64,000 bases of DNA from an uncultured Pseudomonadota bacterium (GTDB taxonomy: Bacteria > Pseudomonadota > Alphaproteobacteria > RF32 > CAG-239). The translations under genes and the position numbers were made by a program. The notes beneath the pieces were generated by a model that was not told the DNA's origin, did no database searches, and saw only the letters and a list, made by a program, of their open reading frames with translations. This document shows, piece after piece, positions 36,858 through 39,070 of this stretch (positions within the stretch are counted from its first letter, which is position 1; each line of letters opens with the position of its first letter). The stretch covers positions 131,811-195,810 of the forward strand of contig CASEZG010000001.1 of NCBI GenBank assembly GCA_949292375.1. The letters run 5' to 3'.

Positions 36858-37172
36858 ATGAAGCAAATTACAGACAGTCAGTTTGAATCAGAGGTTCTTA
36901 AATCTAAGGGTTTGGTTCTGGTTGACTTTTGGGCAGAATGGTGCGGTCCTTGTCGTCAGTTGGGGCCGGTTTTGGAAGAGGTTTCTAAGGAAATGGGCGA
37001 CAAAGTTACCATTTGCAAGATGAATGTTGACGAATCTCCGAATACGGCTGCTCAGTATGGAATCCGTAGTATTCCGACAATGTTCTTGTTTAAGGACGGT
37101 AAGCAAGTTGATGTTAAGGTTGGCTTGAACTCTCAAGCCTCTTTGGTTTCTTGGATTGAGTCCCACAGATAA
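36858..37172 (+). CDS. trxA: Thioredoxin
   Basis: VDFWAEWCGPC; canonical addB-addA-trxA order. Confidence 0.96.
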   Translation: MKQITDSQFESEVLKSKGLVLVDFWAEWCGPCRQLGPVLEEVSKEMGDKVTICKMNVDESPNTAAQYGIRSIPTMFLFKDGKQVDVKVGLNSQASLVSWIESHR

Positions 37173-37182
37173 GATATTAGAG

Positions 37183-37210
37183 AAAGGGCAGATTAGTTTC
37201 TGCCTTTTTT
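37183..37210 (+). terminator. Terminator after trxA
   Basis: aaagggcaga-ttagtt-tctgcctttttt. Confidence 0.8.
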
Positions 37211-37263
37211 ATGAACTTTTATACAATCAAAAGTTTATTTATTAAAAATAACTATGAAATAAG

Positions 37264-37292
37264 TTGCTTTAAATATATTTGTATATTATAGT
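37264..37292 (+). promoter_or_regulatory. Candidate sigma70 promoter upstream of the structured RNA
   Basis: TTGCTT-17 nt-TATAGT; a second candidate, TTGCAA...TATATT, lies at 37309-37338. Confidence 0.4.
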
Positions 37293-37396
37293 TCTTTGTA
37301 ACAAATGGTTGCAAAGCAACTTAAAGTGTGTTTATATTAGGAGTGTATGGAAGTTCAATGCAACTTTCAGTATTCTCAAAAGCGAGAATCGGAGCG

Positions 37397-37578
37397 GTAA
37401 GAGGCTTTTACAAGCAGCGGGCGGTATTGATGACGATTGTATCGTGTCAATACCGTTACTGGTATGGACCGGTTGTTCTGCAAGTTATGTGGAAAATCGT
37501 GGTATCTCTGTAACGGAAGGTTTGCTTTCGTTTCAGAACTATCGCTGCTTAGTACTCTTACATACTGCGATTTTCCAC
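37397..37578 (+). ncRNA. Candidate structured ncRNA of unknown family
   Basis: Six nested stems plus a 17-bp non-nested pairing; all non-Watson-Crick stem pairs are G-U on the + strand. Confidence 0.6.
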
Positions 37579-37585
37579 CTCTTGA

Positions 37586-39070
37586 CTAGCAGCAGAGTTC
37601 TTCAATGATTTTGTTTAAAACCGCAAAGCCTTTTGATGTTGCTTTGAGGTTGTTTTTTGTTTCCGTTAAAAAGCCTTCAGAAATAAGATGTTGTAGATTT
37701 TTTGTGTTGATTGTTTCAGCAAAAGTTAAGCCGCAATTTTCAAAAAATCGTTGTTTGTTTATGCCCTGATTAAGCCGTAAACCCATAATGATTAATTCTT
37801 CAGCGCGTTCCTGTGCCGTGAGCTCTTCTATGTTTAAATGATGCGTGGTGGCATAAATTTTGCCCTCAGACATAAATCTTCCGTGGGCGGATTTGCCAAT
37901 GCCTATATAATCATCTCCTTCCCAATAAAGCAGATTATGTTTGCAAGGCAGTCCATAGTTTGAAACTTCGTATTGCGGATAGCCGTTGGTGTTAAGATAA
38001 TCGTTGGTGAAGGCATACATCTGAACAGCAGCCTCATCTTCTAAGGCACGTACGCCTTTGGCCGCAAAAACCGTACCTTCTTCAATGGTTAATTGATATA
38101 GGGAAATGTGCTTAAAACCAAAATTTGTTGCTTGTTTCAGCTCTTGTTTCCATTCTTCCAAGCTTTGCTGTGGACGGGCATAAATCAAATCCATAGAATG
38201 ATTGTCAAAGATATTTAAGACTTCATCTATGGCTTTTTGAGCTTGTTTGAGGTTATGTGTGCGGCCTAAGAATCGTAAGTCTTTGTCATTTAGAGCCTGA
38301 ACGCCTAAAGATAACCGATTGATTCCGGCAGTTTTTAGCTCATAAAACATATTTTCTCTGTCTGAGTTGGGGTTGGCTTCCAGACTAATCTCTATATCTG
38401 AACGAATCTGCCATTTTTTAGCAATGAAGTTGATGATTTTTTCTATGTTTTGCGGCTTAATCAGCGATGGTGTACCGCCGCCGAAAAAAATACTACTGAC
38501 AGTTTTATCTTGTGTGAACCGATGATAATATTCTAAGTCTTGCAAATAGCCGTCTATTATTTCTTCTTGTGCTACATCCTTTTTGACTTCCTTATAAAAG
38601 TCGCAATAAGGGCAACGAGATAGGCAAAACGGCCAGTGGATATAAACTCCGAAAGGTTTTAAAACTCGTCTGGTGGGCAACTGCTTGGGCAATCCGGTGC
38701 TCACATCCTCATGTACATTAGAGTACATTCCGGTGTTGCGCTCCGTGTCGTCCGGCGCATTTCCCTCACCAGCCGAGTTTTGGAAAGTGGAGGCGGGTAG
38801 CTGCTTGGGCAATCCGGTGCTTTTATTCTCATGTACATTAGAGTACATTCCGGTGTTGTGCTCCGTGTCGTCCGGCGCATTTCCCTCACCAGCCGAGTTT
38901 TGGAAAGTGGAGGCGGGTAACTGCTTGGGCAATCCGGTGCTTTTATTCTCATGTACATTAGAGTACATTCCGGTGTTGCGCTCCGTGTCGTCCGGCGCAT
39001 TTCCCTCACCAGCCGAGTTTTGGAAAGCGGAGGCGGGTAACTGCTTGGGCAATCCGGCATTCATATCCAC
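37586..39070 (-). CDS. hemW: Radical SAM heme chaperone HemW (HemN-like) with repeat-derived N-terminal extension
   Basis: YIHWPFCLSRCPYCDF, FFGGGTPS, EANP, RLSLGVQ, DLIYARP, SLYQLTIE, YEVSNY and HNLLYW; start codon uncertain. Confidence 0.9.
   Translation of the reverse strand: MDMNAGLPKQLPASAFQNSAGEGNAPDDTERNTGMYSNVHENKSTGLPKQLPASTFQNSAGEGNAPDDTEHNTGMYSNVHENKSTGLPKQLPASTFQNSAGEGNAPDDTERNTGMYSNVHEDVSTGLPKQLPTRRVLKPFGVYIHWPFCLSRCPYCDFYKEVKKDVAQEEIIDGYLQDLEYYHRFTQDKTVSSIFFGGGTPSLIKPQNIEKIINFIAKKWQIRSDIEISLEANPNSDRENMFYELKTAGINRLSLGVQALNDKDLRFLGRTHNLKQAQKAIDEVLNIFDNHSMDLIYARPQQSLEEWKQELKQATNFGFKHISLYQLTIEEGTVFAAKGVRALEDEAAVQMYAFTNDYLNTNGYPQYEVSNYGLPCKHNLLYWEGDDYIGIGKSAHGRFMSEGKIYATTHHLNIEELTAQERAEELIIMGLRLNQGINKQRFFENCGLTFAETINTKNLQHLISEGFLTETKNNLKATSKGFAVLNKIIEELCC
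38657..39057. repeat. RPE-1-like palindromic element amplified as a 120-bp tandem array (3 units plus a partial)
   Basis: Near-identical units start at 38681, 38801 and 38921 with a partial at 39041; one complete palindrome spans 38657-38786. Confidence 0.92.

Follow-up and report, generated by a model that had tools for sequence, protein, structure and literature searches.

The window, the whole stretch of 64,000 nucleotides that was analysed, comes from a 1.44-Mb genome (G000; 38 contigs, 92% complete) and carries a gene for an AddA-like helicase-nuclease upstream of trxA, which is followed by the RNA described here and by hemW on the opposite strand. An initial annotation had placed a multi-stem RNA between trxA and hemW, downstream of a trxA terminator and of candidate promoters, and both of these surroundings were borne out, as trxA has its own hairpin and T run and the predicted promoter is conserved. 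The RNA lies on the plus strand from about 37345 to about 37583, roughly 240 nt, and some transcripts may begin near 37300. The features of the locus are listed below.

36858-37172, plus strand: trxA, the upstream neighbour of the RNA
37187-37210: hairpin and T run of trxA, ahead of the RNA
37264-37292, plus strand: P_up, promoter-like, with TTGCTT (37264-37269), a 17-nt spacer and TATAGT (37287-37292); predicted start near 37300
37309-37338, plus strand: P_down, promoter-like, with TTGCAA, an 18-nt spacer and TATATT; predicted start near G37345; 9 of 12 matches in the scan
about 37345 to about 37583, plus strand: the RNA
37579-37589, plus strand: U-run remnant CUCUU and deletion scar GACTAG, overlapping the hemW stop
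39070-37586, minus strand: hemW open reading frame, convergent with the RNA; stop CTA at 37586-37588

Two promoter-like sequences, spaced by 45 nt, are arranged in tandem on the 5′ side of the RNA. P_up is conserved in six of seven congeners (alignment A4), with G006 having a single promoter only, and a -35/-10 pair at a fixed distance from GTATGG (37345) was present in all seven genomes. Consensus and conservation together support a conserved promoter belonging to the RNA itself. In the window, the next feature 3′ of the RNA is the convergent hemW stop, and the RNA does not occupy the 5′ UTR of a gene here. A coding function was rejected, as the 109-aa open reading frame at 37279-37608 is disrupted in congeners by gaps of 1, 2, 4 and 7 columns, and no conserved leader peptide was seen by eye in the RNA region. 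Within the 5′ part of the hemW reading frame, a 120-nt tandem repeat was observed (38675-39057, 3.2 copies, 96% matches), which gives three repeats of ~40 aa in an N-terminal extension; the HemW N-termini in G003 and G006 are shorter and unrepeated.

Folding of the plus strand from 37380 to 37590 gave -81.6 kcal/mol, compared to -55.6 ± 4.3 kcal/mol for 200 dinucleotide shuffles (z = -6.0), with none of the 200 shuffles folding as well, and the minus strand of the same region gave -59 kcal/mol (z = -4.7). The structure, which was derived from one sequence, was then compared across an alignment of seven sequences from the same genus (A2), four of which are near-identical (97-98% identity). The structure that was counted, consisting of the initially annotated stems with a UCUG/CAGA extension of P6 and without one stem discussed below, holds 73 pairs and 503 cells. 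Pairing was retained in 96.2% of these cells, compared to 92.5 ± 0.5% in shuffles (0 of 500 as high), and two-sided changes were found at 14 of the 73 pairs, compared to 6.0 ± 1.8 in shuffles (0 of 500), while sliding the partners by 1-3 columns reduced pairing to 37-48%. Of the 503 cells, 484 pair on the plus strand versus 445 on the minus strand, with 45 G-U pairs on the plus strand against 6 A-C, which upholds the earlier argument that the wobbles point to a plus-strand RNA. The elements of the RNA are as follows.

37348-37369, plus strand: 5′ leader hairpin (UGGAAGUU / AACUUUCA); all seven species fold one, at -6.0 to -12.1 kcal/mol
37372-37389, plus strand: H0, AUUCUC, a 6-nt loop and GAGAAU; six invariant pairs, two loop positions vary
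37397-37420, plus strand: 5′ strands of P1 (37397-37403) and P2 (37412-37420) with an 8-nt joining strand between them; invariant
37421-37456, plus strand: P3, a long hairpin of 16 pairs; four two-sided changes, 97% paired
37458-37473, plus strand: P4, a short hairpin; outer four pairs 100% paired
37475-37488, plus strand: joining strand; with 37488-37494 as its 3′ side it makes up a competing, antiterminator-like hairpin that is weak in this species
37489-37505, plus strand: 5′ arm of the 17-bp long-range helix, with its partner at 37562-37578
37507-37537, plus strand: P6 hairpin including the invariant UCUG/CAGA base; six two-sided changes
37542-37561, plus strand: 3′ strands of P2 (37542-37550) and P1 (37555-37561) with an AGUA bulge between them; invariant
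37562-37578, plus strand: 3′ arm of the 17-bp helix, abutting P1 directly; substitutions track 37489-37505

All of the stem sequences in the initial annotation are present where it had placed them, and the fold as a whole was supported by the comparison. One stem, gttctg (37475) with cagaac (37534), was rejected: it was 83% paired, showed no covariation and has five of its six pairs broken in G006. It competes with the UCUG/CAGA base of P6, in which the invariant CAGA pairs better. The pairing of an internal strand with the 3′ tail, on the other hand, is the best supported single element of the fold: the 17-bp helix is 98.3% paired and covaries in the seven genomes, with three two-sided and seven one-sided changed pairs in A2. 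In G006, its 5′ arm has GG in place of AA and its 3′ arm has, correspondingly, CC in place of UU, and the duplex energy in four species was between -22.9 and -25.1 kcal/mol. Among the local hairpins, P3 carries a flip from U-A to A-U at 37437/37441 in G005, the inner two pairs of P4 are 86% paired with one two-sided change, and the base of P6 in G006 reads UCUGUCC/GGACAGA. The 5′ leader hairpin is built from a different sequence in each species, directly 3′ of the predicted start. An alternative closing helix P0 (37384-37391 with 37568-37575), in which the 3′ strand of H0 takes the 3′ tail as its partner and which appears in the unconstrained minimum-energy fold, was rejected at 94% pairing without covariation; its mismatches fall exactly where the 3′ arm changed to follow 37489-37505.

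In contrast to the 17-bp helix, which covaries, the helices P1 and P2 that cross it do not change, which bears on an H-type pseudoknot. Their 5′ strands (37397-37420) are the perfect complement of 37542-37561, with no variation in 10 distinct sequences; in A2, P1, P2 and the stem of the 5′ hairpin H0 are likewise invariant. Since H0, P1 and P2 never vary, the comparison neither supports nor refutes these helices. About 90 nt of the RNA are invariant across the genus, while the third codon positions of trxA differ by 35-39%, and invariance of this kind in H0, P1 and P2 is odd for plain helices, suggesting sequence-specific contacts, several alternative partners or an operator at the DNA level.

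Comparison to the 4227 models of Rfam 15 gave no matches at gathering thresholds in the whole window, and so no strong match to a known family, and none in 20 related loci. With permissive filters, seven matches were obtained for 37100-37700, all with E of at least 1.5 and far below threshold; within 37340-37600, no model reached E < 1 and the best was a snoRNA model (16.5 bits, E 2.2). The initial annotation had been unable to match the RNA to tmRNA, RNase P, SRP or 6S RNA, and this proved correct, as each of these was located elsewhere in G000 above its cut-off: the only 6S match in the genome (RF00013) is at C3:31444-31599 (60.8 bits), the alphaproteobacterial two-piece tmRNA model RF01849 matches contig 21 (209 bits), RNase P RNA (RF00010) is at C3:53497-53882 (285.6 bits) and SRP RNA (RF00169) is at C1:95921-96016 (62.7 bits). 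ARAGORN found nothing in the window.

By blastn, the RNA was found in all six other genomes of the genus at 82-98% identity, with G006 aligning in parts only, and in 0 of 34 other relatives (E of at least 0.056). A covariance model built from A2 (R1) matched all seven genus genomes at E ≤ 1e-54. Among 144 other genomes of the family, from 22 genera, it gave only six matches of 13-15 bits (E 0.11-0.34), and one further match of 15 bits in an order-level sample of 151 genomes, 149 of them from the same family. When a single genome for each GTDB species was scanned with a pattern that required the P1 and P2 sequences, six records were returned, all from this genus and all uncultured gut Alphaproteobacteria, one being 'Candidatus Scatocola faecigallinarum'. 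A metagenome scan anchored on H0 and CAGAACTA, with P1 and P2 left free, returned 18 contigs, several from human gut, all of the same genus types (R1 E ≤ 4e-65); these add only three new variants, giving 10 distinct sequences in 25 rows. Such exact-pattern scans are blind to relatives with changed anchor motifs. The RNA stretch is single-copy in G000 and viral contigs gave no match with either pattern, which argues against a repeat or mobile element. The RNA thus falls outside the described families, and its range is a single genus of gut Alphaproteobacteria with small genomes. The main text of Fremin and Bhatt 2021 (PMC8040213) does not mention Alphaproteobacteria, thioredoxin, helix-turn-helix or pseudoknot, and its supplementary candidates may include the motif. 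The listed papers on 'Scatocola', judged by titles and abstract openings, are microbiome surveys or deal with nomenclature.

Contigs assembled from RNA libraries (Logan) cover the RNA in three runs: a 247-nt contig spanning 37332-37576 (X5), a 259-nt contig from the same study spanning 37322-37580 (X7) and a 163-nt contig from a second study spanning 37348-37510 (X6). The two longer metatranscriptome contigs begin upstream of the predicted start of P_down. In X5 and X7, there was no trxA or hemW cover except a 33-nt thioredoxin motif, which has mismatches and foreign flanks and comes from other organisms, while X6 covers trxA and hemW at similar depth; a 318-nt contig in X9, with 22 differences, runs from 37432 on into hemW. 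A plus-strand transcript of 200-300 nt had been expected, and the lengths of 247 and 259 nt agree with this, although such contigs carry neither strand, true ends nor level, and DNA can occur in RNA libraries. These data moderately support a separate and relatively abundant transcript whose extent is close to the predicted one.

In three congeners, two plus-strand genes lie 3′ of the RNA, followed by convergent hemW (loci L034, L036 and L037, of the G003, G002 and G006 types, respectively). The first encodes a 75-82-aa helix-turn-helix (HTH) protein of XRE type (Pfam HTH_3, E 5e-7 to 9e-6) and the second a 300-aa multi-pass membrane protein, for which no Pfam or NCBIfam family match was obtained and whose resemblance to EamA proteins in a protein atlas is a lead only. 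The statement that no plus-strand gene lies downstream thus holds in this window and fails in the congeners. The HTH start codon lies 12-45 nt 3′ of the helix in these three of the seven species; counted from the U run, the distance is 12-17 nt in G003 and G002 and ~40 nt in G006. So short a gap leaves no room for a promoter, indicating that the HTH and membrane-protein genes can hardly own one and must be reached through the RNA. In these relatives, then, the RNA lies in the 5′ UTR of a same-strand gene and contains a structured domain with covariation.

Directly 3′ of the 17-bp helix comes a U run, which reads CUUUUU in G003, CUUUU in G002, CUUUUAUU in G006 and CUCUU in the window, or, past one C, UUUUU, UUUU, UUUUAUU and UCUU, respectively. 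With 56 nt between its arms, the helix cannot be called by a consensus terminator scan, and intrinsic terminators do not usually have a loop of this size. The strand immediately 5′ of its 5′ arm forms, with that arm, a competing hairpin of -11.3 kcal/mol in both G003 and G002 and -13.5 kcal/mol in G006 (z -3.6 to -4.6), in one sequence form shared by G003 and G002 and an unrelated form in G006. In G000, G001, G004 and G005, the same region gives -4.6 kcal/mol (z -0.6), like shuffles, and 11 nt of the arm are free. The 17-bp duplex thus stands at -23 to -25 kcal/mol in all species against -11 to -13.5 kcal/mol for the competitor where the genes are present. Judged by these energies in few lineages, the layout looks like a terminator facing an antiterminator, as in a transcription attenuator; the association of antiterminator strength with gene presence compares two or three independent lineages against one. 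The earlier view that a cis riboswitch is unlikely is therefore contradicted by the congeners, in which the RNA stands 12-45 nt upstream of same-strand genes in this layout. A stand-alone, possibly novel RNA, absent from Rfam 15, remains apt for the window's own genome, and it is the dismissal of a cis role for the family that did not hold. The initial annotation was, overall, partly confirmed as an observation and partly supported in its first interpretation.

How the long helix and its surroundings fit together can be read in two ways, as the sequence would be compatible with either P1/P2 and the 17-bp helix coexisting in a pseudoknot or the two alternating as a switch. The 5′ arm of the presumed terminator lies inside the domain closed by P1 and P2, which implies a pseudoknot or mutual exclusion, and, as P2, P1 and the long helix have their 3′ strands in one unbroken stretch (37542-37578), a bent or side-by-side arrangement would be required for them to coexist. 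The P1/P2 domain is complete only a few bases before the 3′ arm of the terminator, which argues against a kinetic aptamer closed by P1. This timing leaves room for a factor that might bind the single-stranded invariant 5′ strands, or H0, earlier.

The window's genome and its three close relatives have neither of the two genes. No orthologue of the membrane protein was found in G000, G001, G004 or G005: G000 has no match, and the other three have only a 26-28% identical paralogue that is also present in G002 and G003. A relocated HTH gene was not found in G000 either, where there were only generic HTH matches (29-30% identity, E 0.002-0.005). The window reads CCAC-CUCUU-GACTAG-CAGCAG across the end of the RNA, and in L034 the membrane-protein gene ends in GACTAA overlapping the hemW stop; the window therefore retains the final codon and the stop of the membrane-protein gene that was lost. 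The same junction is found in all four genomes. As read from this junction, a single 1.2-kb deletion removed both genes while sparing hemW and the RNA up to its helix.

We compared the four deletion-sharing genomes with each other to see how the RNA has varied without the genes. Variable columns numbered 15 of 286 in the RNA and promoter, compared to 23 of 127 in the spacer at 37173-37299 (Fisher p = 7e-5), with 14 of 241 in the RNA and 1 of 45 in the promoter region at 37300-37344. The mean pairwise difference was 3.0% in the RNA, and at third codon positions it was 14% in addA, 7.5% in trxA and 23% in hemW, the last including the repeat region. Paired positions carry nine substitutions, eight of which retain pairing; two compensatory doubles were found (37437/37441, U-A to A-U, and 37515/37529, G-C to A-U), four of the remaining stem changes are of wobble type and one gives an A-C mismatch (37531), while the other five variable columns lie in loops. 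By this comparison, the RNA in the gene-less clade is still under purifying selection. Low variation and kept pairing make a pure relic unlikely and point to a role of the RNA that is independent of the neighbouring genes.

On balance, this evidence leans towards an orphaned attenuator leader, of an unclassified RNA type, that is now made as a stand-alone RNA. The fold and its strand, the confinement to one genus, the gene order, the deletion and the constraint are backed by the data, whereas for the terminator, its switching, the sensor and what the RNA does today we infer a course in which the RNA would have arisen as the 5′ leader of a two-gene unit encoding the XRE-type HTH protein and the 300-aa EamA-like membrane protein. 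The 17-bp helix and U run would form an intrinsic terminator, and the antiterminator would be a local hairpin in which the 5′ arm of the terminator pairs with the strand preceding it, with the invariant 5′ domain (H0, P1, P2 and the joining strands) as the likely sensor for a ligand or protein. The 1.2-kb deletion in the window's clade took both genes exactly up to the putative terminator; with no read-through target left, the antiterminator would then have decayed, leaving a constitutively terminated stand-alone transcript. Given that purifying selection persists, the orphan RNA presumably acts on its own: it may bind or titrate the partner of the former leader, or pair in trans. An extension of this, which we think unlikely as a whole, is that the RNA represents a new class of sensing RNA with its terminator interlocked with the sensor, the 17-bp helix being threaded from a junction strand in the multi-helix domain to the 3′ tail, and that after loss of the operon it became a trans-acting or factor-titrating RNA.

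A different account, which we rate as credible though rather unlikely, is that each of the seven species has the RNA as an independent trans-acting sRNA, and that the HTH and membrane-protein genes owe their expression to incidental read-through and were never regulated by it. The conserved promoter and a 5′ hairpin typical of stable sRNAs, the discrete contigs in RNA libraries, the ~90 nt that stay invariant despite the third-position divergence of trxA and the retention of a constrained RNA after loss of the neighbouring genes would all be expected of such an sRNA. What it leaves unexplained is that a start codon 12-17 nt past the U run in G003 and G002 makes the genes dependent on passage through the helix, and that a strong competing hairpin, in two sequence forms, occurs exactly where the genes are. 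These two features fit an attenuator leader. Loss of the regulated genes and decay of the competing hairpin and U run could also mean that the RNA is a non-functional leader relic, not yet eroded since the deletion. This is quite improbable given that variation in the RNA is 3-4 times lower than in the adjacent spacer and at silent sites in the four deletion-sharing species, that eight of nine stem changes keep pairing, with two compensatory doubles, and that RNA-library contigs cover it.

The invariance might also be sought at the DNA level, in a palindromic repeat, a bidirectional trxA/hemW terminator or an array of HTH operators without functional RNA. H0 as ATTCTC-N6-GAGAAT, together with GTAAGAG-G-CTTTTAC, makes 37372-37411 palindrome-like, these blocks are invariant in all species and the HTH gene adjoins the RNA in congeners, so they may additionally serve an HTH dimer as DNA operators. 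As a full explanation, however, a DNA element is very unlikely: the wobble count and the strand test favour one RNA strand, compensatory changes link segments 57-90 nt apart, the element is single-copy, trxA has its own hairpin and T run at 37187-37210, and the blocks are still invariant in the clade that lacks the HTH gene. The multi-stem fold with its long pseudoknot-like pairing is of a complexity similar to that of self-cleaving ribozymes or large known ncRNAs, but membership in either is extremely improbable, as the best Rfam match to the RNA was the snoRNA model at E 2.2 and the contigs of 247-259 nt span the whole RNA unbroken.

Riboswitches, T-box leaders and protein-dependent attenuators are leaders that attenuate transcription. 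The RNA resembles them in having its own predicted promoter, a conserved multi-helix domain, a helix and U run before the first gene in congeners, and a competing upstream hairpin that shares the 5′ arm of the putative terminator. It differs in matching none of the 4227 Rfam models, in its single gene context within a single genus, in the placement of the terminator 5′ arm inside the P1/P2 domain and in the lack of a cis target in the window's genome. SreA and SreB of Listeria and EutX/Rli55 are terminated riboswitch leaders that also act in trans; they still precede their genes, and their ligands and targets are known. As with these, premature termination would turn the leader into a separate RNA that has its own function, which would explain selection after gene loss, though in the window's clade the genes themselves have been deleted. 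Structured bacterial ncRNAs without an assigned function, such as raiA, OLE, ROOL and GOLLD, are all in Rfam; the RNA is like them in exceeding 200 nt and in having several covarying helices and long-range pairing, and unlike them in its attenuator-like 3′ end, its far narrower distribution in one genus and the absence of covariance-model similarity. It shares with 6S RNA a similar length, a putative stand-alone gene and probable abundance in RNA libraries, but it is multi-branched, not a rod with a central bubble, and the 6S RNA of this genome is on another contig.

The locus thus adds a well-supported unclassified structured RNA, expressed according to RNA-library contigs, from an uncultured gut lineage, and it offers a rare before-and-after comparison, with the RNA ahead of genes in three species and alone in four. 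As the antiterminator has decayed in the four gene-less species while the rest is under selection, the path from leader to independent RNA becomes testable, and if the orphaned leader has indeed been taken over for a new role, the clade would show, in nature, a cis leader in transition to a stand-alone ncRNA. Its narrow distribution in one genus and a function predicted from sequence limit its reach, and the ~90 invariant nucleotides point to a specific partner.

Outside the genus, orthologues of the membrane protein are 56-69% identical, and some match was found in 33 of 46 family genomes. The usual order in other genera is trxA, the membrane-protein gene and convergent hemW; the membrane-protein gene is preceded either by other genes or by a short spacer. 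No homologous RNA was found before this gene in other genera by R1 or Rfam, and R1 with filters off gave noise only (≤ 9.3 bits) at five such loci. Orthologues that occur elsewhere without the RNA indicate that the RNA and HTH gene are an addition specific to this genus. In genus g13, a 40%-identical homologue of the small HTH protein is encoded after the membrane-protein gene on the minus strand (L088:1285-1497 and its equivalent in L089), preceded by its own ~210-nt spacer, which contains two hairpins and, immediately 5′ of the start codon, a GCCUUUUU run; the z values for folding of these spacers were only -1.4 and -2.8. In genus g6, the 228-nt spacer between trxA and the membrane-protein gene (L097:1273-1500) folds at -74.3 kcal/mol (z = -7.5) into several GC-rich hairpins and a strong terminator, matches neither Rfam nor R1, and may be another unclassified RNA or a repeat element.
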